A stretch of 64,000 bases of DNA from a virus. The translations under genes and the position numbers were made by a program. Positions 13,531-46,786 of the stretch are shown here, piece by piece (the first letter of the stretch is position 1; every line of letters begins with the position of its first letter). The stretch lies in the IMG/VR virus record IMGVR_UViG_3300023174_000084, positions 51,581 to 115,580 of that record, one strand, 5' to 3'. The notes below the pieces were generated by a model, which had not been told where the DNA came from, ran no database searches, and saw only the letters and a list, made by a program, of their open reading frames with translations.

Positions 13531-14304
13531 TTAGTTCATCATAAACTCTAAAACGCCACCATAACTATTTTCCATATCATCTTCGAGCTCTTTAATTTCT
13601 TGCATTGCTTCTTCAAAGATTTTATCACCGTTTAATACAACACCACCTGGTAATTGAATGTTACCAAATTTTTTAAGGTTTTCACCCCATTGTCGTTTAA
13701 TTAAAGCAGTTGCATATAGTTTTAGCCAGCGGTCATTCCATACTCGACTGTATACATTTGGATTAACAATAGTGTAACATTCAACTACAACAATTTGGCC
13801 TACAGTAATATCTGTATCATCCCAACCCCAATCAATGAATAATTTTTCCATATGTCGTTGGTAACGAATTGGAACTTCACCTGTAAATAACTGTTCAAGC
13901 ATTCTTAGATGCTGCATAGTCATAGTATAGTTGATGTATGATGCAGAAGTAAAATCGTAGAGTTCGTTTAATCGTAATTGATACCGCAAGTCAAACATAC
14001 TGACGGTTGCTTGTGAATCAGAAAGTGGAAATATACGAGTAACACCTTCAACTCGTGTAACGTTATTAGAATTATCGGTAACATTACTTAAATCTAGGTA
14101 ACGATTATCAATATCTTGTTGTGTTACTGCGTGAATATAATAAGTTTTCTGTAGTCCATCAAAATGATAGTCTTGAAAATATTGTAAGGCATCATCAACA
14201 CGATCTTGAACTTGGTCTGGATCGACATTGATTTCGATAACCGGAAAGCCAAGTTTTCTAAGGCAGTAGTCGGTAAATTGGTCTCTATTGGTAACGGTTG
14301 CCAT
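13531..14304 (-). CDS. gp13: Neck protein
   Basis: [16 protein letters not shown]...[27 protein letters not shown]. Confidence 0.95.
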
Positions 14305-15535: not shown

Positions 15536-15538
15536 TTA

Positions 15539-16842
<1,304 letters not shown>

Positions 16843-16848
16843 AAAAAT

Positions 16849-17979
16849 TTAAATAGGTAATTGTTTTTTCAACCAATTTAATTCTGATCGATTTTCGTTT
16901 GATTGATACCAACCTTTACCTTCATAAACATTCAATACAGATTGAAAATATTCTTCATACATTTTACCAACTTTTTCTAATGTAAAGTTCTCAGCAAATT
17001 GCCTACAATTTTTAGGATCAATTTTGTCAATATTTTTGGCTGCCCAAGTAAAATGTTCAAAAGTTCTGCATCGATATCCAGTAACACCATGAATATTGTT
17101 TTCAGTAAATGATCCCCAATCTGTGGTAATCGTTGGAGTACCAGAAAATAATAATTCCATTTGCACACCACCAAAAGGTTCTGTATATAAAGATGCTACA
17201 AAAGCACCTTTTGCATTAGACATTAATTTTCTTCGTGTTTCAACATCTGCATAACCTAGTTCGGTAACATGAGAAGGAGTTTCTTTATAACCCATTTGTT
17301 TTAAAGAATTTTGGCCAGCAATAATTAATTTAGCACCAATTGCTTCGGTTGCCTGAACTGCAATATTAACACCTTTACCTTCATATACTCTACCTAAAAA
17401 TAAAAAATAATCTTCTTTTTTATCATTAAAAGTAAAATCATCAGGATCAAAATAGTTTGGAATAACTATATCATACCAATCTTGTTTACAAGTACCAACA
17501 GATGATATGCCATAGTAAGCATGATAGATGGCATACGATTCAAATATTTTCCATCGAGCCCAATGACCACCAGCATAACCAATTCCCGGTTCCACACAAA
17601 TTAAATCTGGATGTGCATCACAAATTGGCCTAACTCCTGAACCCCAAAATGGAAGAATAAAATCGTTTTTTCTTTTTCTTTTATCAACTTCTACAATTCC
17701 ATTTTTATAAAAGGTTTGATAAGCATGGTCTGCTGTATTAAACTTATAAAAGTTTTTTCGCCAATCGTAATTACCATAAGCAATTTCTAAATCTTTATTT
17801 GTTGTAATAGTAACATGTTCTGTGCATTGCAAATCGGAATCTTCATGGCCATAATGTATGACTTCGTGGCCAAGATTTGTCATCATCTTACCAAACTTAA
17901 CAACCTTTTGTGTATATGCACAAGCATTATATTCTTTAGAAGATACTGTATGTGGTAATCCTAAAATATGAAATCTCAC
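16849..17979 (-). CDS. Glycosyltransferase, GT4 (GT-B fold)
   Basis: FLFLGRVYEGKG and EPFGGVQME (EX7E) ... SGTPTITTDWG. Confidence 0.9.
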   Translation of the reverse strand: MRFHILGLPHTVSSKEYNACAYTQKVVKFGKMMTNLGHEVIHYGHEDSDLQCTEHVTITTNKDLEIAYGNYDWRKNFYKFNTADHAYQTFYKNGIVEVDKRKRKNDFILPFWGSGVRPICDAHPDLICVEPGIGYAGGHWARWKIFESYAIYHAYYGISSVGTCKQDWYDIVIPNYFDPDDFTFNDKKEDYFLFLGRVYEGKGVNIAVQATEAIGAKLIIAGQNSLKQMGYKETPSHVTELGYADVETRRKLMSNAKGAFVASLYTEPFGGVQMELLFSGTPTITTDWGSFTENNIHGVTGYRCRTFEHFTWAAKNIDKIDPKNCRQFAENFTLEKVGKMYEEYFQSVLNVYEGKGWYQSNENRSELNWLKKQLPI

Positions 17980-18542
17980 TGTGTAAATACTCCGTAATAT
18001 GCTCTACCATAACAACCAGATTCAGATAGTGTTGTTATCATACCTCTAGCTCCAATCCATTCATTTAAATTCTTTTCTGTAAGTTCGTGTGGATGGCCAT
18101 CATGTGCTGGTATATCAATCCATTCAAACAATCTTAATGTTGGTGCCGCTGCTTTGGCATTGGCAATAATTTTACCTGGATCTATTGCATGTTGCATACA
18201 ATTATAAATCCAAACTTCATCCCAACCTCTTTCTACAACCTCTTCACCAGGTTTAATATCAACATCTATATTATGAAAAGCATATCTCATTAATGTCCAT
18301 TCAGGATATTCTATAGGATCAACAACTTTACCTTTTTTTAAGTTGATTGTTTTTAATAACATTGAAGTTGGACCACCACCAATATCTAAAATTGATTTAT
18401 TAAAAACATTAAATGAATAATGTTCTCTGTGTAATCCCATTAATTTACCATAGATGTAATGCTTTTGATCTTCATCAAATGTATTACAACAATTTCCCCA
18501 ATAATCTTTTTCAAATTCATAATCTTCCATAATTATACCCAT
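17976..18542 (-). CDS. Class I SAM-dependent methyltransferase-like protein
   Basis: Motif I ILDIGGGP; WDEVWIYNCMQH resembles motif IV. Confidence 0.75.
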   Translation of the reverse strand: MGIIMEDYEFEKDYWGNCCNTFDEDQKHYIYGKLMGLHREHYSFNVFNKSILDIGGGPTSMLLKTINLKKGKVVDPIEYPEWTLMRYAFHNIDVDIKPGEEVVERGWDEVWIYNCMQHAIDPGKIIANAKAAAPTLRLFEWIDIPAHDGHPHELTEKNLNEWIGARGMITTLSESGCYGRAYYGVFTQ

Positions 18543-19108
18543 TTAGGACCTTCAAACCAAACTGCAATAGAATATCTTGTACCTTTTGTTACTGGATGTG
18601 CTTGATGTGGAATAAAAGATGGAATGAAAATTGCTGTACCTTGTTGACGAATTTCTTCTTTATTTGGATATTGGCCACAAGTTAAATCAAAAATTTCAAA
18701 ATCACCACCTTCATATTCATCTGGATCGGATAATTGAATAAGACAAGTTAATTTTCTGTGATATGAATCATTATTAATCCAGAATACATCATGATGTTTT
18801 TTATATTCTCCTTGATAAGAAGAATCATATTCAGCTAGTTGAATAAAAGATAGATTGGTAATATGAAAATTGAACCATTCACGGTTCGCTTGAATACCCA
18901 TTTTCCAAATTTCTTCAAAAAGAAATTGAAAGTCTGGATCATTTGATTGAACAAAACGAACTTTACTTCTTCGCCAATTATTATCTAAAGTGTTACCATC
19001 AACACCTAATACAGCATCTTTAGAAGATTTTTTTAAACCTAAATCAAGAATTTTTTGGCAAGTTTCTTTTGAGAAATGCTTGCCAAAATAACACCATTCA
19101 CCTTTCAT
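18533..19108 (-). CDS. 2OG-Fe(II) oxygenase (prolyl-hydroxylase/PKHD-like)
   Basis: HxD (KHHD), RKLT..IQL, YEGGDF, distal His (PHQ) and RxS (RYS) 2OG-binding motif. Confidence 0.92.
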   Translation of the reverse strand: MKGEWCYFGKHFSKETCQKILDLGLKKSSKDAVLGVDGNTLDNNWRRSKVRFVQSNDPDFQFLFEEIWKMGIQANREWFNFHITNLSFIQLAEYDSSYQGEYKKHHDVFWINNDSYHRKLTCLIQLSDPDEYEGGDFEIFDLTCGQYPNKEEIRQQGTAIFIPSFIPHQAHPVTKGTRYSIAVWFEGPKWV

Positions 19109-19137: not shown

Positions 19138-19145
19138 TATTTATT
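19138..19145 (-). promoter_or_regulatory. Late promoter AATAAATA heading the oxygenase-MTase-GT cassette
   Basis: Motif about 30 nt upstream of ATG 19108, with a GAGG RBS between. Confidence 0.6.
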
Positions 19146-22100
19146 ATAAGTCCACTACAGTTCTGAGTAACTTAACTGTTGAAACAGCATTTGTTCCAGT
19201 AAACAACAACCGAACTGTTCCACCAGAAATATCAGCATCAAAAGTTCCTAAAGAAGAATTGGTTATTACTTCACCATACTGTGCTAAGAATACTGTTGTA
19301 CCATTATGCACTAAATTCAGTTCAATAATATGATATTCTATTCCAGAAGAAATCTGCACAAAATATTTTGCTGAACGATAAGTGGTTGTTGGCCATGCAT
19401 CAACAGAAATTTGTGAAGTGGACGATGTGGTAAATGTATTACTTGTTGTGTCTACTTCAGCCAAACTAATTGTAGTTGCACCAAGCGTTGTTACACCAGT
19501 CAACGAACCACTCATAGTGTCGCCAGACTTTAATACAGTAGAGAACGCTCTTGTGTTAGCTGTATTAGCTTGTATATAAGCAGAAGATGCAAAGTCATTA
19601 ACTGCTATAATATTGGTATTCTGTGTTAAATCCACACCTTGTATAATGCTGATGGCTGAATTTTGTGCCAAATCCACACCTTCAATAATGGATATTCTAG
19701 TATTTTGTCCAGCATCAACACCTTGAATAATCGTAATTGCACCTGCATTGGTGTTCGCTTGTACAAAAGCACCAGCAGCATAGTTATTAACTGCTGTAAT
19801 ATTAGTATTTTGTGTTAAATCCACACCTTGAATAATAGCTATCGCATCAGCATTAGTATTTGCTTTATTAAATGCACCAGCAGCATAGTTATTAACTGCT
19901 GTAATATTAGTATTTTGAGTAAGGTCTACACCTTGAATAATACTAATAGCTGAGTTCTGTGCTAAATCAACACCTTCAATAATAGACATTCTAGTATTTT
20001 GACTGGTATTAACACCTTGTGCATATGTTAATATATTTGTTTGACCGGAATATACTGCATCCGCATAAACATTACCAGCAACACCAACACCACCAATAAC
20101 TTGTAATGATCCTGTTGAGTTTGATGAACTTGGATTATTAGATTTAATTACTAAATTGTTAGCAGAAGTAAATCTAGCAACTTCATTCTCAGTATTAATT
20201 CCATTTACTGCAAATATAATATCATTTTGAAGTTGTGTTCCAAGTATTAAATCGCCACCACCTGTATTAGCTTTTCCAGAAACAAACAAATAACCATCGT
20301 TTGGTCCTAAAAGGCTAAAACCTGGATAATTATAGTTACTACCTGCAAGACCTAAATCTAGATAACCATCTATAATTGATCCGTTGTCTGCGGTTATAAA
20401 ATAATCACCAGAAGAATTTGCACCAGAATTAATATTTTGTATTTGGAGTGCAGCATAACCATCATAATCAGCAGCTAAATTCATTACTGTTTGTGGTTCA
20501 ATGAGATAACCTGTTGGAATACCAGCATACAAAGCATTGAAACCATTAGCCGCATAACCAAAGAATTGGCCAGTATTACCTGTAACTTGCACAGAAGTAA
20601 CATTACCTACAAATGAAACGTTACCATTGACAGTTAAATCGTTTGTAACAGTAACGGAACCAGTAATTGTGCCACCAGAAGAACTAAACTTACTGTTGGC
20701 GGCACTATAAGCACCAGCAGCCAGACCATTAGCACCGTTAGCAGTATTAAATGCTGACTGAGCAAAATTATTAACGGCAGTAATATTATTATTCTGTGTT
20801 AAATCCACACCTTGTATAATGCTGATGGCACCAGCATTGGTGTTTGCTTGTGCATATGCAGAAGCCGCATAGTTGTTTACCGCTGTAATATTAGTTGCAT
20901 TTGTGTTTGCTTGGTTATAAGCACCAGCAGCCAGACCATTAGCACCATTGGCTGTGTTATAAGCTGATTGAGCAAAATTATTAACGGCAGTAATATTGGT
21001 ATTTTGAGTAAGGTCTACACCTTGAATAATACTGATAGCTGAATTTTGTGCTAAATCCACACCTTGAATACCAGCAATTTGAGTATTCTGTGTTAAATCT
21101 ACACCTTGAATAATACTGATAGCTGAATTTTGTGCTAAATCCACACCTTGAATACCAGCAATTTGAGTATTCTGTGTTAAATCTACACCTTGAATTATTG
21201 AAATGTTACTGGCATTTGTATTTGCTTGTGCATAAGCACCAGCAGCCAGACCATTAGCACCGTTAGCAGTATTAAATGCTGACTGAGTAAATTGATTTAC
21301 AGCATTAGAAGAATCAAAAGCTGCATTTGCTTTATTATAAGCATTTCCAGCAATTATTTCTACTTGAGTTGTGTATGAATATGCTGTATTAGCTTGATTA
21401 TAAGCAGAAGCAGCAAATTGGTTTACTTCTGTAATTCTGGTGTTCTGACCTAAATCTACACTTTGAATAATGCTAATAGTAGTATTTTGGTCACTATTAA
21501 TGGTCTCAATAGAATTTAGACGTGTATTTTGTGTGGCATCCACACCTTGTATAATTGTTATAACACCTGCATTGGTGTTTGCTTGGTTATAAGCACCAGC
21601 AGCCAATCCATTGGCACCATTGGCAGTATTGAAAGCACCAGCAGCTAAACCATTGGCACCATTAGCAGTATTATAAGCTGACTGAGCAAAATTGTTAACC
21701 TCTGTAATTGTGGTATTTTGGCCTAAATTTACAGCTTGAATAATAGCAATAGAACCAGCATTTGTATTTGCTAAAGCAAAAGCAGAATTTACCCTACCTG
21801 TATCAGCAATTCTAAAGAAATTTGTGCCATCATTAGTGAATTCCCACGCATGGTCTGTTTCACTCCATTTCAATACTGTGTTCGTTTCACTTCCACGATT
21901 AACTTCAATACCAGCATCAAGTGTTGGAACACCAGTTACATTTGAATTCAATGTAATGATGTTATCTTTAACATGTAATTGTTCTGTATTTGCGTAGAAT
22001 GTTGTTCCAGTAACACTTAAATTACCAGTAACATTTACATCACCAGAGATTGTTCCACCAGAAGAATTAAATTTACTATTGGCTGTGTTGTAAGCACTAG

Positions 22101-24216
22101 CAGCAAATTGATTTACTTCTGTAATTCTGGTGTTCTGACCTAAATCTACACCTTGTATGACAGCGATAGCACCAGCATTGGTGTTTGCTTGGTTATAAGC
22201 ACCGGCAGCCAGACCGTTAGCACCATTGGCAGTATTATAAGCACTAGCGGCAAATTGATTTACTAAATTACTAGAATTATAGGCAGATTGTGCTAAAGCT
22301 CTTGCCACATTATCTGTTGCAGATCCGACTGATAGTGTGTTTGCAAAAGCAAAAGCAGCTTGAGCTATGCCAGTTCCAGTATTTGCTTGGTTATAAGCAC
22401 CGGCAGCCAGACCATTAGCACCGTTAGCAGTATTAAATGCCGATTGTGCAAATTGATTTACGGCATTAGATGAAGCAAAAGCGGCATTAGCTCTATCATA
22501 GGCATTATTTGCTTTATTTGAAATATCGCCTGTTGATGGTACACTTGAACCAGAAATAACAAAATCTGAAGCACCAGTTATAACTAATTGACCATTATTG
22601 TTACTTAAAACTATGTTATCAATATCAACAGAACCTGGACCAACATATAAACTATGCCAACGTTTAGTTGAACTTCCTAAGTATTGTGTATTGGTTATTG
22701 AAGGTAAAGCATTACCATAAAATATTGTGGATAAATCGTCATTAAATTGTATAACAACATTTGATTCTTCTTGTCCGCCAGCAACAATTTTGGTGTGTTG
22801 ACCTGTAGTATCAGACAAGGTACCAATAATTAAATTGCCACCAACTTGACCTGTGTTACCTTGTACCAATAAAAAACCATCTAATGGATATAAAACACCA
22901 TCTGATGCTTGAGAGTTTTGTATACCTAAATCAATATAAAATGTGGTGTCTGTACCAACATCTGCCGTTACAACAAAGTCTGCTGATCCATTTGGATCAA
23001 TATTTTCAGCATTTATTTGAACATAAGTTGCAGCATTACCAGTGAACTGTGCAATTAAATCCGGCAGAGGTGTGGAGAGTTGTGGAGAAATACCAGCATA
23101 TAATTTATTACTTATATATGCATTGGATGTATTAGACCATTCTGTTGTATTGATCGAACCATTAATGATTAGATTGCCATTTAATGTTTGATTTCCTGAA
23201 TTTTGTAATGAAGTATTTGCTTTATTAAATGCACCAGAAGCCAGACCATTAGCACCATTGGCTGTATTGAAAGCACCAGCAGCCAGTCCGTTTGCGCCAT
23301 TTGCGGTGTTAAATGCTGATTGGGCAAATTGATTTACGGGAGTAATGTTTGTTGCAACGTAAGATTGAGAGGCTATAGTTTCATCATTTTGTAAATCATC
23401 TGTGTATTCCCAAGTTTTGTTAGCTTCATTCCAATAAATTAAAACATTATTTGCTGTACCACGGTCGACTTCGATACCAGCATCAAATACTGGAGCTCCA
23501 ACAGTATTTGCGTTTAGAGTTATAAAACTATCATCAACATTAATATTGGTAACATTTGCATAAAATGTTTGACCGGTTACTGTTAAGTTGCCAGTAACGG
23601 ATACATCTCCTGAAATTGTTCCTCCAGAAGAATTAAATTTACTATTGGCAGTATTAAATGCTGACTGAGTAAATTGATTTACAGCTGTAATTGTGTTGTT
23701 CTGGCCTAAATTTACACCTTGAATAATTGCAATGGCAGTATTCTGGTCTACATTAACGGTCTCAATAGAATTTAATCTAGTGTTCTGAGTATTATCAACA
23801 CTCTCAATGATAGACATCCGAGTGTTCTGGTCTTGATTGACTGTTTCGATAGAACCTAAACGGACGTTCTGTGTTAAGTTTACACCTTGAATAATGGAAA
23901 TTGAGCCAGCATTAGTATTTGCTTGGTTATAAGCACCAGCAGCTAGACCATTAGCACCATTGGCTGTATTATAAGATGACTGAGTAAATTGATTTACAGC
24001 TGTAATTGTGTTGTTTTGACTAGTGTTTATACCTTGAATAATGGATAAATTGGCATCAAACTGTGTTTTGTTGATGATATAATTACCACCGACCGTAACA
24101 TTATCATGAACGGTAAGAGTTTTCTGATCGGTATCAACGGTAACTTCTCCAACTGCTCCCGTAAATACAGCAGTTTGTGCTGTATTACCTCTTCTAAGTT
24201 GTAATTGTGTGGCCAT
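19144..24216 (-). CDS. Large tail fibre with Mtd_N-like N-terminus and coiled-coil repeats
   Basis: MATQLQLRRGNTAQ...GEVTVDTD..TLTVHD (major tropism determinant N-terminal type); many IIQGVDLTQNT and ANGANGLAAGA repeats; C-terminal YRSAKYFVQI domain. Confidence 0.85.
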   Translation of the reverse strand: MATQLQLRRGNTAQTAVFTGAVGEVTVDTDQKTLTVHDNVTVGGNYIINKTQFDANLSIIQGINTSQNNTITAVNQFTQSSYNTANGANGLAAGAYNQANTNAGSISIIQGVNLTQNVRLGSIETVNQDQNTRMSIIESVDNTQNTRLNSIETVNVDQNTAIAIIQGVNLGQNNTITAVNQFTQSAFNTANSKFNSSGGTISGDVSVTGNLTVTGQTFYANVTNINVDDSFITLNANTVGAPVFDAGIEVDRGTANNVLIYWNEANKTWEYTDDLQNDETIASQSYVATNITPVNQFAQSAFNTANGANGLAAGAFNTANGANGLASGAFNKANTSLQNSGNQTLNGNLIINGSINTTEWSNTSNAYISNKLYAGISPQLSTPLPDLIAQFTGNAATYVQINAENIDPNGSADFVVTADVGTDTTFYIDLGIQNSQASDGVLYPLDGFLLVQGNTGQVGGNLIIGTLSDTTGQHTKIVAGGQEESNVVIQFNDDLSTIFYGNALPSITNTQYLGSSTKRWHSLYVGPGSVDIDNIVLSNNNGQLVITGASDFVISGSSVPSTGDISNKANNAYDRANAAFASSNAVNQFAQSAFNTANGANGLAAGAYNQANTGTGIAQAAFAFANTLSVGSATDNVARALAQSAYNSSNLVNQFAASAYNTANGANGLAAGAYNQANTNAGAIAVIQGVDLGQNTRITEVNQFAASAYNTANSKFNSSGGTISGDVNVTGNLSVTGTTFYANTEQLHVKDNIITLNSNVTGVPTLDAGIEVNRGSETNTVLKWSETDHAWEFTNDGTNFFRIADTGRVNSAFALANTNAGSIAIIQAVNLGQNTTITEVNNFAQSAYNTANGANGLAAGAFNTANGANGLAAGAYNQANTNAGVITIIQGVDATQNTRLNSIETINSDQNTTISIIQSVDLGQNTRITEVNQFAASAYNQANTAYSYTTQVEIIAGNAYNKANAAFDSSNAVNQFTQSAFNTANGANGLAAGAYAQANTNASNISIIQGVDLTQNTQIAGIQGVDLAQNSAISIIQGVDLTQNTQIAGIQGVDLAQNSAISIIQGVDLTQNTNITAVNNFAQSAYNTANGANGLAAGAYNQANTNATNITAVNNYAASAYAQANTNAGAISIIQGVDLTQNNNITAVNNFAQSAFNTANGANGLAAGAYSAANSKFSSSGGTITGSVTVTNDLTVNGNVSFVGNVTSVQVTGNTGQFFGYAANGFNALYAGIPTGYLIEPQTVMNLAADYDGYAALQIQNINSGANSSGDYFITADNGSIIDGYLDLGLAGSNYNYPGFSLLGPNDGYLFVSGKANTGGGDLILGTQLQNDIIFAVNGINTENEVARFTSANNLVIKSNNPSSSNSTGSLQVIGGVGVAGNVYADAVYSGQTNILTYAQGVNTSQNTRMSIIEGVDLAQNSAISIIQGVDLTQNTNITAVNNYAAGAFNKANTNADAIAIIQGVDLTQNTNITAVNNYAAGAFVQANTNAGAITIIQGVDAGQNTRISIIEGVDLAQNSAISIIQGVDLTQNTNIIAVNDFASSAYIQANTANTRAFSTVLKSGDTMSGSLTGVTTLGATTISLAEVDTTSNTFTTSSTSQISVDAWPTTTYRSAKYFVQISSGIEYHIIELNLVHNGTTVFLAQYGEVITNSSLGTFDADISGGTVRLLFTGTNAVSTVKLLRTVVDL
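21015..21195. repeat. 84 bp tandem repeat (about 2 copies) encoding IIQGVDLAQNSAIS/IIQGVDLTQNTQIAG units
   Basis: Visible exact duplication in the DNA and a 28 aa period in the protein. Confidence 0.8.
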
Positions 24217-24251
24217 GTTTTATCCTAAAATTCTAATTTATATACTATTTA

Positions 24252-25322
24252 TTACGCCAAGGATCCATAATCGAAAGAATCTGTAACTGGTTGATCATCA
24301 AAACCAGCATCAAAAATAATTGTAACTGGTTGGCCAATATAACCCAAATCAGCAGAAGGAACATCAGGAATGTTTGATGACTGAGCGATTGCATTTCTAA
24401 TAAATGTTACAGTTGTACCATCTACGGAAGGCGTAAACAACAACCTTACATTATTTCCAACAATGTCTGATGAAAAACTTCCTAAAGAATTTAAAGAATA
24501 TACTTCACCAAAAACTGAAGTAAAAGTGTTACTTCCACTTTGCAATATATTTAAATTTAATATGTGATACGATAAGCCAGATTCAATTTGTAATTGGTAG
24601 AAAGCACTTCTGTAAACTAATTTGGAAAAAGAATCAATTGTAACCTGACTTGTTCCTGTAGCATTATAACTTTTTGATGATATATTTGAATTTGCCGTTA
24701 CATCTAAAGATTTAACATTTAATACACCTGTACTCGGATTAAATGTTAAATTATTATTTGAGGTGAATAAAGTATTTGTGTTACCAGAAGTATTATTGGC
24801 AAAGTTAATATAGTAAACATTATTTGAACTATTATCATTTACAATCTCTAAAGATCCACCAGATCCACTAGGTCCAGTTGGTCCAGTTGGTCCTGTGGCA
24901 CCTTCAGATCCACTAGGTCCAGTTGGTCCTGTGGCACCTTGAGATCCACTAGGTCCAGTAGGTCCAGTAGGTCCAGTTGGTCCAGTTGGTCCAGTTGGTC
25001 CTGTGGCACCTGTTGTACTCGATGCAGTTGCATTAATTGTGATTGTTTTTGTTACGGTGCAGGCTGAAATGGTAATATTATTACCGGCTGCAATAGATAG
25101 AGTATCTGTTGGTGATGTTGCAAGAATTAACGAACTATTTGCGTTGATAGTTGCAAATGAGTCGGTTGTTGAACCACTTTGAATAAAAGTGATTGTATTA
25201 TTAGAATTGCGATAATACAGTTTTCCATCAGCGTAGTTTAACGCCAACTCACCATATTCTAGTGAAGAAGGTACATTACCTGTTACGCCTGATTTTTTTA
25301 CCTGTAATATTGTATTTGCCAT
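24252..25322 (-). CDS. Fibre/adaptor protein with short collagen segment
   Basis: N-terminal P..L..GELALN head, about 17 GXY triplets, [10 protein letters not shown] domain shared with 19144-24216. Confidence 0.8.
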
Positions 25323-25328
25323 CTACTT

Positions 25329-25904
25329 TTAAAAACTTCCGCCATCTTTCGTTATATCGTCTATTAAAGGTAAAACTGACGACTGATTTGTTATTTCTAA
25401 ATCTTTATCTTTTTCTTCGTCTAATTTTTTACGCTTGGCAGGAGTTAATTGCAAATACTCAATTTGATCATTCAGTTTTTTAATTTTTAATTCATATTCA
25501 TCATGAGTTTTTTTATGATTCTCACGTTCTTTATTTAATTCATTTCTAAAAGTGTCAAGATGATTTACTTGATGTTTAACATTTTCATATTCATTTTTTA
25601 AATTATTTAAGTCATTTAACTGTTTTTCTAATTCACCAATTCTTTCTAAATGACCTCTAATAACATTTTCTAAGTTTAAAATTTTAGAATCAGACTCTTG
25701 ATTTTTATTACTTTTAATCAATTCCAATTCATTTTTTAAATTTTCAATAATTTTTTCAAATTCATTATTTTTTTTAACCTGTTCATTAATAACATCTTCA
25801 GTAACTCGTGCATTAGCTTGTAGAGATATATTCCTAATGACTGCATCTGTCATTGTACCGGTCAATACCTCTACATAATAATTCAAATATTTTTCATTTC
25901 CCAT
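25329..25904 (-). CDS. Coiled-coil hypothetical protein ending DGGSF
   Basis: Lys/Glu/Asn-rich heptads; AGGAG RBS. Confidence 0.75.
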   Translation of the reverse strand: MGNEKYLNYYVEVLTGTMTDAVIRNISLQANARVTEDVINEQVKKNNEFEKIIENLKNELELIKSNKNQESDSKILNLENVIRGHLERIGELEKQLNDLNNLKNEYENVKHQVNHLDTFRNELNKERENHKKTHDEYELKIKKLNDQIEYLQLTPAKRKKLDEEKDKDLEITNQSSVLPLIDDITKDGGSF

Positions 25905-25942
25905 TTCAAACTCCTATTATAAAAAAATTATATAGTCATGAA

Positions 25943-28063
25943 TTAAAACTGACCTCCATCTAATGCTGTTGTCCAAACTGGAACACCAGCATTAGTAACG
26001 GTTAATATCTGATTAGACCAAGTTTGATCCGCAATACCGGCCGCAGCTGTTACTCCTAAATTACCTGTTCCATTACCGTATGTAATACCGTTTTGTGTAA
26101 TCGTGGATAGACCTGTACCACCTTGTCCAACAGTTAATCCTGAAATTGCACCAACTGTAGCAGCAGTGAATCTTCCAAATCCATCAACAGTAATCGATGT
26201 AATTGTATTATTGGAAGTTAAAGTGCCTGTTTGAGTGTATGTGGTATTTGCTAATGAAGCAATTTTTGTGCCATCAAAATATGTAATTTGATTATTAGTA
26301 AATGATGTACCGTTAGTACCACCACGATTTATTGGTAACGTACCTGAAGTAATTGCAGAAGCATCAATTGCAATAGATGTATTTGATACAGCAACAACAC
26401 GGCCATATACATCAGTTGAAAATGCAGCAACAGAAGAGGCTGAACCAAAGGTTTGACCAACAGCAACACTAGAGTTAGCGATTTGTGTTAAACCATTTAC
26501 ACCAGAACCAATAACAATTTGGCCAGAAGTGAATGATGTTTTACCTGTACCACCATTTGGTACTGTGAGAGCATTGGTGAGTGTTAATGTGTTTGCAGTA
26601 ATTGTATCAACTTGTAGGTCGTCAATTACAATATCACCAGTGACAACCAAATTACCAGTAACAGTTAAATTATCATCAATTGTTACTATGCCTGTTGAAG
26701 ATGTAATCGTACCAGGTAGGTTTAATACACCATCGTCTCCAAATGTCCAAAAATGAGCATTGTTTGCACGAATGTATACTTCTTTTGTAGCATCACTTAC
26801 TTGAACATTAGTTTGTTCACCACCCAAATATAATTCAGCACTAGAGGCATCAATTGTACCACCAGCACGAACATGAATATGATTTGGTGCTGTTGGATCA
26901 AGAATGATGTATTGGTCATTGACACCTGGACCATAATTGACACTTGGTGCTAATAAGAGTGTGTTGTTGGTTGTGTCACCAAAAATACGGTTTGCAACAT
27001 ATATTGTATTGGCTTGAACCGTGTTACCAATTGTGTTGCCTTTAAAATATGCTGCATGAACATTGGCTTCACGATATGATGGGTCACTTAGGTTGATGTT
27101 ATTGTTTGCATCAAGTTCACCAGTATAACCTTGGAAGAAATGATATTCTTTTGTGCCGGCATCACGAATCAAACCTGTGTGAGCATTTGAACCATCATTG
27201 TAGTGTGAGGCAAAACCAATATCAAATGTGTCGGAGAAATAGTTTCCTGTACCTAAAAGAAGTAATGGATCTTCAATTTCAAATTGGTCAATGGCAAATG
27301 TTGTAGTATTACCAAATACAAATAAGTTACCTGTTACAGTTAAATCATTGTTTGCACCAATCGTCAATCCTGTATTAATTGTCTGTGTACCACCAGTAAA
27401 TGCGTTAGCACGAACAACAGTATTATCAACATCAAAAGTTACTGTGTCGGTTGCACTTGCAACAGAAGTAATACCGGCACCACCAACGAGTGTTAGTGTG
27501 TCACCACCAGAAACGGTTTGTGATGCACCAGAATCGGCTGCAACAGTAAATGATGTAGAAATTGCTGCAGTTGTAACATTCATTACACGGCCGTTAGCGG
27601 CCACTTGAATGACTGGAATTGCCGTTGTGGATCCATAGGTACCAGCACCAAGACTAGGAACCGCATCGAGAGAAGCGTTAAGTATCACATCACCGGTACC
27701 ATTAAAGGAAACAGCCGATGCGGTGATATCACCACCATCAATTGAGAAATTTCTAGAGTTCTCTAATTGAAGAGCAGCATTTGCGGTACCTTGAATAGTA
27801 CCAATAATGTTTGCAGTAATAAAGTTAAAGGATGCATTACCAGTTGCATCTCGTTTAACAATTGTTGAAGGAGTTGCTTGGCTCGTAGCATTATCAATTT
27901 GAGATGTATAATATTGACCACCAACATTGACAACACCATTGCCAGTAGGAGAACCAATAAAAATAGTATTTGAAGCGTAAGAATATGCTAATTCACCAGC
28001 AAGTAATGATCCTGGTCTTCCAACTGAATTGGAACGTTTGATTAAAATGTTGGTATTTGCCAT
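25943..28063 (-). CDS. Tail fibre-like structural protein ending LDGGQF
   Basis: GELAYS head; repeated GGTG and VDxYGRV fibre motifs. Confidence 0.82.
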   Translation of the reverse strand: MANTNILIKRSNSVGRPGSLLAGELAYSYASNTIFIGSPTGNGVVNVGGQYYTSQIDNATSQATPSTIVKRDATGNASFNFITANIIGTIQGTANAALQLENSRNFSIDGGDITASAVSFNGTGDVILNASLDAVPSLGAGTYGSTTAIPVIQVAANGRVMNVTTAAISTSFTVAADSGASQTVSGGDTLTLVGGAGITSVASATDTVTFDVDNTVVRANAFTGGTQTINTGLTIGANNDLTVTGNLFVFGNTTTFAIDQFEIEDPLLLLGTGNYFSDTFDIGFASHYNDGSNAHTGLIRDAGTKEYHFFQGYTGELDANNNINLSDPSYREANVHAAYFKGNTIGNTVQANTIYVANRIFGDTTNNTLLLAPSVNYGPGVNDQYIILDPTAPNHIHVRAGGTIDASSAELYLGGEQTNVQVSDATKEVYIRANNAHFWTFGDDGVLNLPGTITSSTGIVTIDDNLTVTGNLVVTGDIVIDDLQVDTITANTLTLTNALTVPNGGTGKTSFTSGQIVIGSGVNGLTQIANSSVAVGQTFGSASSVAAFSTDVYGRVVAVSNTSIAIDASAITSGTLPINRGGTNGTSFTNNQITYFDGTKIASLANTTYTQTGTLTSNNTITSITVDGFGRFTAATVGAISGLTVGQGGTGLSTITQNGITYGNGTGNLGVTAAAGIADQTWSNQILTVTNAGVPVWTTALDGGQF

Positions 28064-28114
28064 TTATTTTCTCTCTTTTATTATGTTTAATGTTTTACTA
28101 CTTTGATCTATTTA

Positions 28115-28312
28115 TTAAAATCTACCGCCGTCAATCAGATTAGGACTAACATTGGCAATAAAATTTGGTCCACCTATTTGTACAATCTGATTATTTGCTG
28201 TACCAATAAAAAGTGTATTGGAAACAAACGAGTACGCTAATTCACCATCATCTAACGATGTTGGTCTTGTGTTTGCATAAGAACGAAGTATTTGAATGAC
28301 TGTATTTGCCAT
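28115..28312 (-). CDS. 65 aa adaptor: GELAYS head plus IDGGRF tail
   Basis: Clear similarity to the N-terminus of 25943-28063 (MANT.I.I.RS....RP.SL..GELAYS..SNT.FIG). Confidence 0.8.
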   Translation of the reverse strand: MANTVIQILRSYANTRPTSLDDGELAYSFVSNTLFIGTANNQIVQIGGPNFIANVSPNLIDGGRF

Positions 28313-28536
28313 TAAAAGAATCCTGCATCTAGGTCTGGATTCAATTCTCCAATCGATTGAACCTTAAAACTATTAGTATTTGCTTGATAAGTTATAACAT
28401 CACCATCTTGCACACCAGTTAAGGATAAGTCAGTAGAACCTTTGAGTGACCTTATACCATAATTTAACTGGCGAACAGTTTTATCTTGCTGTTTATTTAC
28501 TTGAACATTGACTGTTCCAATTACTTGTCCTGGCAT
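28312..28536 (-). CDS. 74 aa hypothetical protein ending LDAGFF
   Basis: RBS AAGGA; DGDVITY fibre-like motif; TAATG coupling to the next gene. Confidence 0.75.
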   Translation of the reverse strand: MPGQVIGTVNVQVNKQQDKTVRQLNYGIRSLKGSTDLSLTGVQDGDVITYQANTNSFKVQSIGELNPDLDAGFF

Positions 28537-28545
28537 ACTGGTTCC

Positions 28546-28887
28546 TTAAAACTTGGTGACTTGAGGAATAACATTTACAATTCCTTCTAATACTCTAGTC
28601 ACGGTGTTTGCAGTATCTTTAATTGCCACATCATATACATAACGACCAGCTGCAATATTAGCTGTTGTGTTGGGATTCAACAATAATAAAATGGTACCAT
28701 CTGTTGGATTATTGATTGTTACCACAAATTCAGCGGTTGTATTGGCTGAGTAATATGATTTACGAATTTGACTTTTAGCGATAACACCAGTTAGGTCAAA
28801 AGGCACTCCATTAATATCATCAAGGGTGATATTAGTGGTAAATGTTGTTCCTTGTTCTAAAAATAACTCTTGATATGCTGCGGCCAT
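28546..28887 (-). CDS. Putative baseplate/fibre attachment adaptor
   Basis: LEQGTTF...DLTG....QIRK...GRYVYDV...RVLEGIV.V.P pattern typical of small beta-sandwich virion adaptors in T4-like environmental phages. Confidence 0.65.
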   Translation of the reverse strand: MAAAYQELFLEQGTTFTTNITLDDINGVPFDLTGVIAKSQIRKSYYSANTTAEFVVTINNPTDGTILLLLNPNTTANIAAGRYVYDVAIKDTANTVTRVLEGIVNVIPQVTKF

Positions 28888-28934: not shown

Positions 28935-30929
28935 TTATTTGGACTTTTTTAGTTCATCAATCTCTAGTTTAAGTTCTTTGATGGCTTCAACTAAAAGAGG
29001 AATAACCCTTTCGTATTTAATTGTTAAATATTGTTCATCAATTGGAGCTGGTACCACAACTTGTGGTAAAACTTTTTGTACCTCTTGAGCGGATAAACCA
29101 ACCTCATCTTTTACTGCATAACCTAAAGCTTGAGCTGTTTCATTTGGTTTGTAATGAAAACCATTTAAAGTCATTAACTTATTCAAAGCGTTTTCTATAT
29201 TACCTAACTTTGTTTTTAACCTATCATCTGAGAAATAACCAGAAATATCTCCTGTAGCACGAATTTCACCCGTGGTTCCTGAAGCAGCCGTACCAACACC
29301 TAAAGAACCAAACTGAACAGAAGCACCTGTGTTTATATTTTGTGGTAAAGATAAAGTTGGAGTGGTTGTTCCTGTTACAGTAATTTGATTCGTTGTACCA
29401 GTAATTGATGTCACTGGTGCGGTACCAGAGCTTAGTGCGGTTACACGACCATAAGCATCAATTGTCAAAGAAGCGTTCGTTGCTGAAGTTGCACCTGGAC
29501 CAGCAGTTGCAAGATCAATTGTTGGAGTTAATCCACCAGAAGATGTGATACGACCTGATGTACCTGATACAGAACTTACACGGTTATTAGCGGTATTGTA
29601 TGAACCTTGAGCTAAACCATTAGCACCATTAGCCGTTGCATAAGCACCTCCAGCAAATTGATTGATATGGGTAATGCTGGTGTTCTGATTAGTATTAACG
29701 GTCTCAATAGAATTTAGACGTGTATTTTGTGTGGCATCTACACCTTGTATAATAGAAATGGCTGTATTTTGTGCAATATCTACTGTTTCAATAGAACCTA
29801 ATCTGGTGTTTTGAGTTATATCCACACCTTGTATAATACTGATTGCAGTATTTTGTGCAATATCTACTGTTTCGATACTATTCAACCTAGTATTCTGTGT
29901 ATTATCCACACCTTGAATAATACCAATACTGGTATTCTGATTGCTATTAATGGTCTCAATACTTTGAATACGAGTATTCTGTGTATTATCTACATTCTGT
30001 AAATAACTAACAGCTGCAGATGTAGCTACATTTGTTGCATTTGGATTTGTTGTTGAACTACTGAGATACTCATCAGTTAATATGCGATAGTAAATACCAC
30101 TAACCACATCATTCATATCAAAGTATGTGTTAGCTTCATTCCAACGAATTGCAGCATTGGCACCAGATAATCCACGATTTACTGTAAATGAACTGTTTAA
30201 ACCTGATGCACTATTCGCATTAATTGTAAAATTGTTTGTGTTATAAATGGTTGTACCAACAATAACAAAATTACCACCAACGGATAATTGTCCACCAACT
30301 GAAGCATTATTTGTTACACTTAAAGATGCCGTAGAAGTTGAGTTGAAAGCAGTTAAATCGGAAGCAGAAACATCTTCAATTGCTGTTAAATTTTTACTGA
30401 CAAATACATTAGAAGAAAGCGTTGTATCACCAGAAACAGAAAGAGTATTACTAACTACTGTTACTCCAGATACAGATAAACTACTACTCAATGTTGTTGC
30501 ACCAGTAACATTTAATGTTCCACCTACAGTTTCATTACCACCAACAGCTAAAGTGCCACCAATAGTTGTATTGTTTGCAACAGCCAAACCAGTACCAGAG
30601 CCCGAAGCGGTGATTCTTCCGTTAGAAATTAATTGACCAGAGTTGGTCAAACCTAATACGGTGTTTTGAAAGTATACTTGTGTGTCAACACGCAGATTGT
30701 TTTGAATATAAGCTGATGAACCAATACCTTGTACCTGTAATTGACCAGCAATAATAGCATTGTTTGCAATCTGTAGACCTAAATTTGGATCATTAAGATA
30801 TAATGTTCCAGTTGGTTTGATATAGTTATTGGCCGCCAAGTCATTGTTTTCTTTTGCAAGATTATTTGTCGTAACGACCCAATCGCCAAATGTATTGGCA
30901 TAGGTAAGATAATTAACTGTGTTGGCCAT
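28935..30929 (-). CDS. Tail fibre with S74-like chaperone
   Basis: N-terminal NTFGDWVVTTN anchor; IIQGVD repeats; YFSDDRLKT autocleavage motif. Confidence 0.85.
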   Translation of the reverse strand: MANTVNYLTYANTFGDWVVTTNNLAKENNDLAANNYIKPTGTLYLNDPNLGLQIANNAIIAGQLQVQGIGSSAYIQNNLRVDTQVYFQNTVLGLTNSGQLISNGRITASGSGTGLAVANNTTIGGTLAVGGNETVGGTLNVTGATTLSSSLSVSGVTVVSNTLSVSGDTTLSSNVFVSKNLTAIEDVSASDLTAFNSTSTASLSVTNNASVGGQLSVGGNFVIVGTTIYNTNNFTINANSASGLNSSFTVNRGLSGANAAIRWNEANTYFDMNDVVSGIYYRILTDEYLSSSTTNPNATNVATSAAVSYLQNVDNTQNTRIQSIETINSNQNTSIGIIQGVDNTQNTRLNSIETVDIAQNTAISIIQGVDITQNTRLGSIETVDIAQNTAISIIQGVDATQNTRLNSIETVNTNQNTSITHINQFAGGAYATANGANGLAQGSYNTANNRVSSVSGTSGRITSSGGLTPTIDLATAGPGATSATNASLTIDAYGRVTALSSGTAPVTSITGTTNQITVTGTTTPTLSLPQNINTGASVQFGSLGVGTAASGTTGEIRATGDISGYFSDDRLKTKLGNIENALNKLMTLNGFHYKPNETAQALGYAVKDEVGLSAQEVQKVLPQVVVPAPIDEQYLTIKYERVIPLLVEAIKELKLEIDELKKSK

Positions 30930-31156: not shown

Positions 31157-34100
31157 TTATAGTGTTACGTTAACATTTGGTGGCAAAGCAATCGCTCTCA
31201 TGTCAATCAAAACAGGTACTGCTGTATTATCCGTTGTCGTAAGAACAATCTTTATTGCAAATTGGCTAAATGTAGTATATGTCTGACCATTTTTAGAAGT
31301 ATACTGAACATAACCTTGGCCAACATTACCTGAACCAGGTGCAAAGCTATACTCATAATATTCATCTCGTGTTTGTGAATATAATGATTCAGAGTTATTA
31401 ATCATTGTCATCAATTGCCAAGAAGAATCATCCAATATTTGTGTATCATTACGATTCAGTATCTTATAGTATACTTGAATTTCAGTATTGACTGGACGAT
31501 ATGCAGTTGTGTAAACAATTAAATCACCAGAATCAAAACCAGCATCTAATACAACTTTTTTAGTCAGATACTTAGCACGACCTGGACCACCAGCTGGTGA
31601 TGTTTCACCTGCAATTGTTACAGAAGCACCGGTACCAGGTGATGTATTTGCATCAGTAATAGTTACTGTCGGCGTAGTGATATAACCAGAACCTGGATTA
31701 ATTAAGTATACAGAATTAATTATACCACCAGAAACGTTGGCAGCTGCCGTAGCTTGAACACCGCCTGGACCTGTTGGTGCGGATACAGTTACAGATGTCA
31801 GTGCTGCATTATATCCCGAACCACCATTGACCACAGTAATTAATGAATTCGATAACTCACAGTTATTTACATTCCATGTAATTGCATAAGCAGTTAAACC
31901 GGCATCAGAAATCATTGGTGATACAGCATCATCATTAGATGACAATTGAGCCAATACTGAGAACGATGCTGTCGAGTTGGCAACCAATACTCGTTGACCA
32001 TTACCATCATTGAGATAGATATTATCGGAAGAAGATGTAGCAAACTTACCAGGATTAATTGGTGTTGTTGTTGTGATTGTGCCGTTTACCAATGAAGCAT
32101 TATATGAGTAATTAATATTTGTTGTTGTAGGCACCAAATCAGTTGTTGTTACGTTAAATGCATCAACAAGCACATTAGTATTTGCAACAGTGTTTGTAAT
32201 ATCAGGTATTGCATTAGCGTTTAAGAAGTATTCAACTGATTCATCTACCAATGTTCTTTGTGGTAATTTTTTAGGTACAACAAACTGAATTGTTGGTGAT
32301 GCAGATGTATTGAATACACAACGATCAATTACAAACATCAAACTTTGATTTTGATCCGCAGTCCATGTCTGTGAATTCTGAGAAATAAACAAAGCACCAA
32401 CAGAAGGTGCACCACCAACTTTAGTAACAGAAGAAGGTGTTGGATCAGTTGGTAAATTCTTAACAGAAGATGCTACGGCAGTATCACCATTAAATGCTGT
32501 CCATAAAATATATTGATTACTATTTGATTTAACAATGAAAGCATATAATAGACCAGGTTGAATGTATACTGGTGCATTAAATGTAAACTCGGTGTAGGCT
32601 GTTGGATCCAAATATTGTGGATTCTCTGATACTACCACTTGGTCTGGCGTTAATGTAACAACAGAATTATCAAGAACATCACCATTTGGATAACCATTCA
32701 ATGTGCCAACCATATACAAACTAATTGGTGAACTATCATTTGTAGGTTTATTTCTAAAGAATACTTTAACAGAATTCAAGAACATACCGTTTGGATAGTT
32801 ATCTTTAGAAATGATGAATGTCTGTGCAACAGGGTCCCATTGATTAAATATAGTTGATACAGTTGTTGTCGAAGCGGTACGAGTTGATGTGAATGTTCCT
32901 TTTGCACCAGACGGTGAAGCACCAAAGTCCACACGCTGAGATGTGGTTTGTAAACCTTGGGCATAGTAAGTGCCTTCTGCAAATGTGGTGGCAGTGTCAA
33001 TATTACCATTGATGCCGTTATTAATATTCAGAACTCTTTCACCAGTATGAAAAGTATTTTCTGGAATAATGAATACACCATATAAAGCTCCTGCTTCATC
33101 GGTTCTTAATGTACCTATAGAATAGATGTCGCCATTAGCTGCTGTTACTGTGCTAGCCAACAATGCGGTTTGATTGGCACCATAGTATGCCGAGATAGAT
33201 GCTGACTGGCCTGCACCCGTACCAGCATTAATATAAATTGTATTACCTGTGTAATAATTATTTGTTGTGCTAGCTAAAGTGGATAATCTAATTCTATTGG
33301 ACGAAACAGCGTTAACGATTCGACCACCAAAGTGTGAAGAAGATGCAATTGTGCCACTTGCTGTAGAGTTCTGATACACACCTGCGGTGTTATAGAAACC
33401 ATTTTGCAATACTGTTGAATTACTGTATTGTGTTGAAGTGGCATCACCAGCAACATATAAACGAACATTGTTTGTGCCTGGATAACGATAGGTACCCAAT
33501 ACTCGGCCTGTAGGTGTAAACAAACCACCACTAAAGTAACCAATGATATCATTCTCATTGAATGTACCAGAAACACCAGTCAATTCGATATGGTTACCTT
33601 TACGAATATAATTTGTAACATCAATATTATCAAATTGGCCTGTGACCAATGTATTGATTAATAAACCTTTAGTGCGAACAACAATTTCTTGTGAACGAAT
33701 GTATGGTAGAATGCTAACATCGGTAATATATCCGTTGTCTAATGCATATGTATTACCAATGCGGTCATATGGACCTACAATATCACTTGCAGCAAAATTT
33801 GTTGTGCGAACTGTTGTTGTAAGATTCCAATTTCTACCCCATTGTGTAGAACTAAATGATGTACCTGAAACGGCTTGCCAATCGCCTGCAGAAAGAACAT
33901 TAATCTGTCCTTGATTTGCACGGAATACTTGTAAATTTGGATCTGTAATCAATAGAGCAGGTGCATAATTTGTATCAACCCAGTTGTCTACGTTTGGTGA
34001 TAGACTTACAACACCTTCTTTTGTATTGAAAGCAAATGGATTTACATTGACTGTGCGTGATGCAATACGTTGTGTAATTGCATTGGCTGTTGTGTATGGT

Positions 34101-37426: not shown

Positions 37427-37429
37427 TTT

Positions 37430-38794: not shown

Positions 38795-38804
38795 GATTTA
38801 TTTA

Positions 38805-41414: not shown

Positions 41415-41417
41415 TTG

Positions 41418-46294: not shown

Positions 46295-46295
46295 T

Positions 46296-46691: not shown

Positions 46692-46786
46692 CTTCTTATT
46701 TATTCTGCTCTAGGAGTAAAATCGCTTTTTTAGTATTTGAAATTGACGCAAAAAATTTTTGGGCCGGAACGCAAAATTTCGAATTT

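Follow-up and report, generated by a model that had tools for sequence, protein, structure and literature searches.

We suggest that the fibre of this virus is built from separately encoded segments, in which the C-terminal tail peptide of one protein would dock into the Mtd_N-like N-terminal head of the next, and we regard this reading as fairly probable from the sequence patterns. Docking of a tail into the following head was also the original prediction, and it agrees with the gene order, the presence/absence covariation, the class-specific pairing of tails with heads and the precedent of phage BPP-1. The motifs, their conservation, their selection at the protein level, the gene order and the class-specific covariation are direct properties of the genes compared.

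The window is the whole stretch of DNA analysed, 64,000 nt of the record IMGVR_UViG_3300023174_000084 (record positions 51,581-115,580; full genome 115.6 kb). The virus is a T4-like myovirus akin to pelagimyophages and cyanomyophages, and the fibre cassette in this window forms its side-fibre or long-fibre module. All genes of the cassette lie on the minus strand, and the predicted coordinates and tail and head motifs were all confirmed.

Organization of the fibre cassette

Four consecutive proteins (74, 65, 706 and 191 aa) terminate in D-[G/A]-G-x-F-COOH, and four proteins (65, 706, 356 and 1690 aa) open with Mtd_N-like heads. We distinguish the tail class T1, [ILV]-[DNQ]-[GA]-G-x-F-COOH, from the class T2, which has 2-3 D-x-G-aromatic motifs and the terminus DYGxL. 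Five related tails had been predicted; four of them carry the strict terminal motif, and the tail of the 356 aa protein belongs to a distinct D-Y-G-x-L class with upstream repeats. The distinct tail classes, the excess of tails over heads and a tail on a membrane protein of the replication module were points absent from that prediction.

The first cassette gene (28546..28887) encodes a p132-like collar or anchor protein of 113 aa, which matched the PHROG profile phrog_3304 ('L-shaped tail fiber protein assembly', T5 p132 family; E 7.9e-22, residues 1-112 on profile positions 1-114 of 177) and phrog_1084 (E 1.1e-25), with a weak PDB match to the 197-residue chain 26dk_M, 'Structural protein' (E 0.017). 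In every related locus inspected, and likewise in P-HM2, Mosig and DC31, the p132-like gene directly adjoins the tail-only anchor gene on its upstream side; this position and the profile match support the predicted role of an adaptor. This anchor, a headless protein of 74 aa (28312..28536), ends in the T1 tail LDAGFF (28315-28332). The 65 aa gene starts within an overlap with the stop codon of the 74 aa gene. Among 39 homologues with identity down to 20%, only M1, G72 and F74 are invariant, so that apart from M1 the invariance is confined to the tail. The AF2 monomer has one hairpin at 46-61, low-confidence coil over residues 1-40 (block pLDDT ~50) and a tail (70-74) below pLDDT 50; the core is a single copy of a ~35-residue repeat, present in up to 28 copies in giant proteins.

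The 65 aa adaptor (28115..28312) is divided into head (residues 1-48), linker (11 residues) and tail (6 residues); its MANT-type Mtd_N-like head (MANTVIQILRSYANTRPTSLDDGELAYS) lies at 28169-28312 and its T1 tail IDGGRF at 28118-28135. In the AF2 monomer the head is all-beta (pLDDT 79-92 over 1-50), the linker has pLDDT ~55, and tail residues 61-64 form a beta strand with pLDDT ~63. Foldseek of this monomer against the PDB gave weak matches, none significant (E >= 0.27), the top ones including the phage fibre/spike proteins HylP 6x3m, CBA120 TSP3 and Mtd 1yu1. The protein is absent from P-HM2 and Mosig and optional among relatives, and its head type is fused to fibres of 1607 and 1409 aa in the related loci L091 and L095, so the predicted role of an extender appears plausible from gene content and fusion pattern. 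The 65, 74 and 113 aa proteins had no matches in Pfam or NCBIfam.

The 706 aa fibre segment (25943..28063) opens with a MANT head (MANTNILIKRSNSVGRPGSLLAGELAYS) at 27914-28063, varies in its middle part and closes with a conserved C-terminal module that ends in the T1 tail LDGGQF (25946-25963). Compared with 24 homologues, its identity is 0.8 at the N-terminus, 0.2-0.3 over residues 351-475 and 0.9 over the last 30 residues, and the P-HM2 orthologue, PHM2_092, ends ..VPVWTDTIDGGTF. No Pfam match was found for the 706 aa protein, and the PDB sequence search returned none for it or for the 74 aa protein. The headless coiled-coil protein of 191 aa (25329..25904), for which the database matches were solely generic coiled-coil, carries the T1 tail KDGGSF at 25332-25349. 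This tail is retained in close relatives, and the protein at the same position lacks it in P-HM2, Mosig and more distant loci.

The collagen-like fibre of 356 aa (24252..25322) is ordered as a B-type MANT head (25173-25322), a collagen triple helix (Pfam Collagen, PF01391, residues 105-156, 32.5 bits against a 27.2-bit cut-off, E 7e-8), a tip domain and a ~38-residue T2 extension (24255-24368) with three D-x-G-aromatic motifs, ending DYGSLA. The repeated D-x-G-aromatic motif is conserved across T2 proteins. The tip domain aligns with the C-termini of two other proteins, the 1690 aa fibre and a terminal protein of 199 aa in the related locus L002, both of which stop where the T2 extension of the 356 aa protein begins; by this alignment the extension is a ~40-residue add-on behind a complete tip domain. 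The terminal fibre of 1690 aa (19144..24216) has a classical Mtd_N head (MATQLQLRRGNTAQTAVFTGAVGEVTVDTD) at 24082-24216, then a long repetitive shaft and the tip domain, at the end of which it finishes with ..VKLLRTVVDL and without a tail motif. Directly downstream of the cassette, at 16849-19108, lie oxygenase, methyltransferase and glycosyltransferase genes. In the DNA-level search against cultured phages the collagen repeats were the sole matches.

Searching the genome with an HMM of the MANT heads recovered the four heads of the cassette and no others, with E 1e-10 for that of the 1690 aa protein. The 1690 aa protein is the sole Pfam Mtd_N (PF18454) match in the genome (residues 6-38, 40.2 bits against a 26.3-bit cut-off, E 3e-10), and the 65, 706 and 356 aa heads had no match to Pfam Mtd_N at E <= 0.1. 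A profile of 53 heads, 13 of which match Pfam Mtd_N, aligned with residues 1-44 of BPP-1 Mtd (E 0.0014). By these profile comparisons the three MANT heads of the cassette are divergent Mtd_N relatives lying below Pfam's own threshold.

Tail motifs and tail-head pairing across relatives

The tail motif is non-random and strictly terminal. In the 154 non-nested ORFs of the 115.6 kb genome (39,851 residues), D[GA]Gx[FYW] occurs five times at the extreme C-terminus and once internally, against 0.004 C-terminal copies expected by chance (P ~ 7e-15), and the related loci contain ~200 terminal copies against 2 internal ones in long frames. T1 tails are found on unrelated scaffolds: a tiny, mostly unfolded anchor, a fibre, a coiled coil and a membrane protein.

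The genome has five T1 tails and one T2 tail against four heads. The fifth T1 tail lies outside the window, on a multi-pass membrane protein encoded between DNA polymerase (gp43) and UvsX and ending KELDGGKF, with no head gene close by; its close relatives (73% identity) lack the final 6 residues. The membrane protein is part of the replication module. A clamp-binding function of the tail was considered and rejected, the DNA polymerase ending ..SSIEDFFS, unlike the tail.

Across ~70 distinct related chains the gene order is p132-like collar, tail-only anchor, proteins with head and tail, and last a terminal fibre that has a head only. Among cultured phages, P-HM2, Mosig and DC31 have the same order, with tails and heads 1:1 in their chains. 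By HMM scoring, a head-bearing gene comes next after 189 of the 195 tail-bearing proteins; in five of the remaining six (L090, L091, L095, L039, L042) a head missed by the HMM was read by eye in the next gene, and in the sixth (L034) an Mtd_N head comes next. After tail-less proteins no head follows in 37 of 53 cases. No natural fusion of a tail to a head was found among the fetched loci. T1 tails precede MANT heads in all 167 scored pairs, with 2 further pairs unclassified, and T2 tails precede classical Mtd_N heads in 20/20 distinct pairs listed, the cases missed by the HMM having been verified. On these counts the tail class predicts the head class of the next gene.

Presence and absence vary together as well. 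Among 42 distinct loci, T2 and the Mtd_N head are both present in 18 and both absent in 22, with two loci having the head without T2 and none having T2 without the head. These states require 9 parsimony changes and give 5-9 independent pairs, in which the two traits never shift in opposite directions; after this phylogenetic control (5-9 independent events) the sign test stands at its floor, p 0.06, and conserved synteny by descent accounts for part of the gene order. When loci were picked by Mtd_N heads alone, the upstream ORF ended in T2 in 30 of 82, against <= 2.6% of all frames, and more than half of the Mtd_N heads in this sample were without an upstream T2. A residue-level covariation between D/N/Q at tail position -5 and K/R at head position 10 (Fisher 4e-16 before tree control) comes down to only 1-2 independent tree events and was set aside as strong evidence.

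A proposed chain and competing readings

From these sequence patterns we infer the physical contact, the stoichiometry and which end faces the virion. Fibre segments, separately encoded, would be joined non-covalently, a C-terminal peptide entering the trimeric N-terminal head of the next segment. As the virion-side collar or anchor, the p132-like protein of 113 aa would grip the largely unfolded 74 aa protein, which would display its T1 tail. T1 tails would bind MANT heads, leading from the 74 aa to the 65 aa and on to the 706 aa protein, and the T1 tail of the 706 aa protein, of the 191 aa coiled coil or of both would bind the 356 aa head. The T2 tail of the 356 aa protein would bind the classical Mtd_N head of the 1690 aa distal fibre, which, having a head and no tail, would end the chain. 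The 356 aa protein had been predicted to be a branch point for several large fibres, and this part was not upheld: only one Mtd_N-headed fibre comes next here, and among relatives the number of motif copies (2-3) shows no relation to the number of following heads. The tail would probably add a beta strand to the head sheet with its terminal aromatic and carboxylate buried, to judge from one weak monomer model in which the tail has pLDDT ~63. The AF2 monomers give a soft contrast in this respect, the tail forming a strand in the chain that includes a head and being disordered in the headless one.

The tails might instead dock to a common hub (the p132-like collar, a baseplate protein or an assembly chaperone) or to a modifying enzyme, with the heads attached elsewhere, which we consider unlikely. 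Such a hub would suit the excess of T1 tails over heads here, one of them on the replication-module membrane protein and one on the 191 aa coiled coil, a possible chaperone, and the p132-like gene is a constant companion of the cassette; a modifying enzyme would suit the enzyme genes directly downstream. However, the tail class follows the class and presence of the next gene's head, and a shared hub is disfavoured because no such tracking would be expected from it. The adjacency of T2 and Mtd_N also appears in BPP-1, where the cassette genes are unannotated around mtd, and in the loci seeded by Mtd_N heads alone, and none of the enzyme genes were found in the DC31 stretch inspected or between the P-HM2 cassette genes. 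A still less probable reading is that the tail acts within its own protein, as a last strand or cap completing or trimerising the C-terminal domain, and that its link to heads is inherited gene order. Conserved terminal trimerisation elements are common in fibre proteins, the 706 aa family keeps a larger C-terminal module of ~25-30 residues around the tail, and the covariation signal is mostly lineage-bound. One hexapeptide, however, ends a coiled coil, the tail region of a membrane protein, the mini-protein of 65 aa and the 74 aa protein, which is largely unfolded, so there is no common domain to cap; the tip domain before T2 is complete without the extension in terminal paralogues, and the close relatives of the membrane protein simply do without the last six residues.

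It is highly improbable that the motif arises at the nucleotide level, with GGAGG-like Gly-Gly codons providing the next gene with its ribosome-binding site. The 706 aa gene ends with GAT GGA GGT, which contains GGAGG, and the 74 and 65 aa genes overlap with ATGA-type coupling, but for two genes the next start codons lie 38 and 51 nt downstream with purine-rich sites of their own. The tail codons vary synonymously, for Gly at -4 (GGT 43, GGC 30, GGA 28), Gly at -3 (GGA 63, GGT 34, GGC 26), Asp (GAT 62, GAC 33) and Phe (TTT 61, TTC 59); this variation refutes a Shine-Dalgarno origin and indicates that the motif is selected at the protein level.

Docking of the tail into the next head might be one case of a general class-specific peptide-socket code that concatenates fibres in many phage lineages, with non-structural proteins co-opting the peptide to capture heads; we put this forward tentatively, leaning somewhat against it. 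The code would pair [DNQ]-[GA]-G-x-F-COOH with MANT heads and D-Y/L/F-G-x-[LIV] with classical Mtd_N heads, with ..AIA(V/L)ALG perhaps as a third class. It would extend over T4-like cyanophages, pelagiphages, Pakpunavirus-like phages, BPP-1 and phage-like regions in bacterial assemblies, and the membrane protein and the coiled coil would be the co-opting proteins, capturing fibre heads in assembly.

Comparison with known fibres and implications

BPP-1 Bbp9, encoded just upstream of mtd, ends ..ADLGGIA, a terminus of the same tail class as that of the 356 aa protein, and the Mtd_N head is shared with the 1690 aa fibre as a true Pfam match. Mtd is located at the fibre ends, two trimers per fibre (PMC2408619), and its beta-prism head is presumed to fix it to the fibre (PMC10743442). 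BPP-1, which is temperate and short-tailed, has a single joint, whereas up to five serial joints and two tail classes are proposed here. In the literature searched we found no account of the Bbp9 C-terminal peptide as a docking element and no described docking motif of a tail peptide with Mtd_N.

The T4 long tail fibre gp34-gp35-gp36-gp37 is encoded by consecutive genes, its segments are assembled end to end, and its joints are formed by dedicated non-homologous junction domains and the monomeric gp35. Assembly follows gene order, from proximal to distal (PMC5537660). The cassette resembles T4 in having fibre segments encoded by consecutive genes in a T4-like myovirus, end-to-end joining being proposed here, and differs in that T4 has neither a repeated head domain nor a shared C-terminal hexapeptide. 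No sequence similarity was detected between the T4 long tail fibre proteins and the cassette.

T5 p132 forms an Ig-like dodecameric collar that anchors the N-terminus of the LTF, with ~50 N-terminal residues of pb1 threading between p132 monomers (PMC10038345). The likeness here is a p132-family gene for the 113 aa protein immediately before the fibre chain. By analogy, and on its AF2 model, the 74 aa protein with coil over its first 40 residues could be a threaded segment like the pb1 N-terminus. In T5 the threaded segment belongs to pb1 itself, whereas the 74 aa protein that would take this part here is encoded separately and would hand over to the fibre by its T1 tail.

In CBA120, G7C and Alcyoneusvirus (RaK2, phiK64-1), branched tailspikes are stacked through conserved N-terminal docking domains. 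In such branched systems several receptor-binding proteins are assembled on one another (PMC10253068). These systems differ in their gp10-like or XD-type N-terminal branching domains, with no terminal C-terminal peptide ligand described, and no homology was detected between their tailspike complexes and the cassette.

T4-like cyanophages and pelagiphages rank among the most abundant aquatic viruses. Little is understood of the apparatus by which they recognise their hosts, and no match can be made between their long-fibre genes and those of T4. With its orphan tail, the membrane protein hints that fibre assembly may be linked to the cell membrane. If docking of tails into heads holds, the attachment of Mtd to the BPP-1 fibre would have a concrete explanation, and small portable connectors would be on offer for exchanging receptor-binding modules in laboratory phages; under a general code, fibres could be re-plugged by the exchange of six residues. 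With such a short tail-to-head code, the fibre order, its length and the distal receptor-binding protein would become predictable from genome sequence alone.

Tail peptides and heads in the viral genome

The source record is a 115.6 kb IMG/VR virus with an estimated completeness of 68%, and the window forms its second half. T4-type baseplate wedge families were matched by genes at 31157-48016, upstream of the fibre cassette, and gp43-, UvsX- and gp41-like genes make up the replication module. On one side of the fibre region are the baseplate genes and on the other a block of oxygenase, methyltransferase and glycosyltransferase genes; the whole lies on the minus strand. Two fibre proteins (28935-30929 and 46787-48016) have a Peptidase_S74 intramolecular chaperone domain at the C-terminus; the N-terminus of the 664 aa Peptidase_S74 protein, MANTVNYLTYANTFGDWVV, is unlike the heads described below and is conserved in the related locus L091.

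All coordinates and motifs listed in the original prediction are present in the sequence. Of the five related tails it lists, four share the strict motif D-[G/A]-G-x-[F/Y/W] (T1) and stand on consecutive proteins, of 74 aa (28312-28536), 65 aa (28115-28312), 706 aa (25943-28063) and 191 aa (coiled coil, 25329-25904); that of the 356 aa collagen protein (24252-25322) is of another class (T2), with three spaced D-x-G-aromatic motifs, the last being DYGSLA. A fifth strict tail lies outside the window, on a multi-pass membrane protein of 307 aa that includes a coiled coil and ends KELDGGKF (genome 24396-25319, minus strand; 10397-11320 of locus L101, minus strand). Its gene is flanked by those for DNA polymerase and UvsX, and searches assigned the protein to no family. 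Of 76 homologues, 20 keep LDGGxF, the most distant at 47% identity, and relatives at 73% identity stop just before it, a clean absence of the tail. Among the 154 ORFs of the genome the motif occurs five times terminally, where 0.004 copies are expected, and once internally.

An HMM of the MANT head, the N-terminal type of the 65, 706 and 356 aa proteins, detected exactly four heads in the genome, including that of the 1690 aa protein (19144-24216), which is Mtd_N by Pfam. MANT heads appear to be divergent relatives of Mtd_N, because a 53-head profile matches residues 1-44 of BPP-1 Mtd (E 0.0014) and 13 of the 53 heads match Pfam Mtd_N.

In the AF2 monomer of the 65 aa protein, the head is modelled confidently as all-beta (pLDDT 79-92), the linker is weak, and the tail forms a beta strand (pLDDT ~63). 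In the model of the headless 74 aa protein the only folded element is a single hairpin; the first 40 residues are coil of low confidence, and the tail scores below pLDDT 50. These models are weakly consistent with a tail peptide that would become ordered only on a head. Foldseek gave no significant match; phage fibre and spike proteins are among its top-ranked weak ones.

Conservation, gene order and class-specific pairing

About 100 related viral loci were fetched using the 65 and 74 aa proteins as queries. The cassette recurs across them with the tail at the very C-terminus of each member (~200 terminal copies versus 2 internal in long frames), and [ILV]-[DNQ]-[GA]-G-x-F is the consensus once more divergent members are included. 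Down to 20% identity, the 74 aa family keeps only Met1 and the tail Gly and Phe invariant. The Asp, Gly and Phe codons vary freely among synonyms, and therefore selection acts on the peptide; a role of the motif as a ribosome-binding site is ruled out. Members of the 706 aa family share their two ends but vary in between, a profile that points to a connecting segment and not a receptor-binding tip. The 74 aa core (residues ~30-65) is itself a repeat unit, L.D[VL]......DGDV[IL].Y....N.F, with up to 28 copies per protein, in proteins as long as 4,700 aa, and 4,390 matches at E <= 0.001 among 1.8 billion representatives.

The order in ~70 distinct chains is a p132-like protein (kin of the 113 aa protein, 28546-28887), a small tail-only protein, one or two head-plus-tail proteins, a coiled-coil protein, a protein with the B-type head variety of the 356 aa protein, and a head-only protein. 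By HMM scoring, tail-bearing proteins are followed by a head-bearing gene in 189 of 195 cases; five of the other six, read by eye, are heads missed by the HMM, and the sixth, in L034, likewise precedes an Mtd_N head. Tail-less proteins lack a head in the next gene in 37 of 53 cases. The cultured P-HM2, Pelagibacter phage Mosig and Limnohabitans phage DC31 have the same pattern, with tails and heads 1:1. In P-HM2, PHM2_090 is p132-like, PHM2_091 ends ..INGGSF, PHM2_092 combines a head with the tail ..IDGGTF, and PHM2_094 (2423 aa) is head only.

A T1 tail always precedes a MANT head, and T2 (DYGxL preceded by 2-3 D-x-G-aromatic repeats) is in every case followed by a classical Mtd_N head of TQLQLRRGNTAQ..EVTVDTD type. 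A comparison of 42 distinct loci found T2 together with a following Mtd_N-headed fibre in 18 and neither of the two in 22; the remaining 2 are discordant, one of them a frameshift-split gene. On the phylogeny of the p132-like protein, T2 and the Mtd_N-headed fibre change 9 times each, giving 5 independent pairs on supported branches (9 counting all branches). The head tracks the tail state in 4.7 of the 5 and never in the opposite direction, the sign-test floor with five pairs being 0.06. The raw covariation of tail position -5 (Asp) with head position 10 (Lys/Arg) shrinks to one or two tree events.

The 356 aa protein has a C-terminal tip domain (~90 residues, 24369-24650) in common with the 1690 aa fibre (19147-19430), in the pattern ..YRSA.Y.[VL]Q..SG..YH...LN......G....FGEV.....LG[ST]F..DI.G..[VL]RLLFT... 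The domain can also be aligned to the 199 aa protein that stands last in the related locus L002. The 1690 aa fibre and the L002 protein both end where the ~40-residue T2 extension begins, and this alignment marks the T2 region as an add-on after the tip domain. L017 holds a second, separate T2-to-Mtd_N pair, in which a 598 aa protein without a head (14038-15834), ending ..VDLGFVWENPSVLLDMGTLT, comes immediately before a 592 aa protein with an Mtd_N head; the B-type protein of that genome is without T2.

A separate sample was seeded by Mtd_N heads alone, from 80 viral loci and 39 of bacterial, archaeal or MAG origin. Among 82 distinct cases, 30 have an upstream ORF with a T2 end, with 5 further near-matches, against a background of at most 2.6% of all frames. 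In BPP-1, bbp9 is the fibre gene that immediately precedes mtd, and the C-terminus of its product, ..ANIGLADLGGIA, is a tail of T2 type. In the head-seeded sample a further 11 upstream ORFs close with ..ATAIAVALG directly before a classical Mtd_N head. This recurrent C-terminus, ..(F)ATAIA(V/I)ALG or ..SIALG, closes long fibre proteins (upstream of Mtd_N heads in L190, L194, L237-L239, L261, L266, L293, L298 and L301; also the 1607 aa protein of L091 and the 464 aa protein of L012) and may be a third docking tail class.

The p132-like protein, a putative anchor

The 113 aa protein matches the T5 p132 family (E 8e-22), and its closest cultured relatives are in Pelagibacter phage Mosig (43% identity), Methylophilales phage Melnitz and many T4-like cyanophages. 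T5 p132 is an Ig-like dodecameric collar, with ~50 N-terminal residues of the fibre protein pb1 threaded between subunits (PMC10038345). In contrast to that pb1 segment, the 74 aa protein is made separately, and it could be a threaded segment of T5 type encoded as a protein of its own. In Streptomyces phage Circinus (L305 5929-6315) and in DC31 (L182 7344-7700) the p132-like gene is found among head and neck genes, in Circinus with the major capsid protein gene on one side and the head-to-tail adaptor gene on the other, in DC31 after the portal gene; therefore, judging from gene position, the collar may sit at the neck in some phages.

Proposed docking of tails to heads

The main rival to docking into the next head is that the tails dock to some other reader, which we consider unlikely. 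Tails are in excess here, five T1 and one T2 versus four heads. The surplus was traced to the coiled-coil and membrane proteins, which may, speculatively, be accessory proteins grasping heads; at the coiled-coil position P-HM2 and Mosig have a protein without a tail. The motifs, the gene order and the class pairing all fit the next head as the docking partner, and from them we infer physical contact.

The 356 aa protein had been predicted to be a branch point for several fibres. This found no support, since a single Mtd_N fibre follows here and motif copies elsewhere do not track head number. By analogy, the two Mtd trimers per fibre of BPP-1, where Mtd is located at fibre ends (PMC2408619), keep the branching idea alive.

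No published description of these tail peptides was found in the literature searched. The observation of related heads and tails is confirmed and extended, and putative docking of each tail into the head encoded by the next gene is the best explanation, and a reasonably probable one, for how these fibres are chained.
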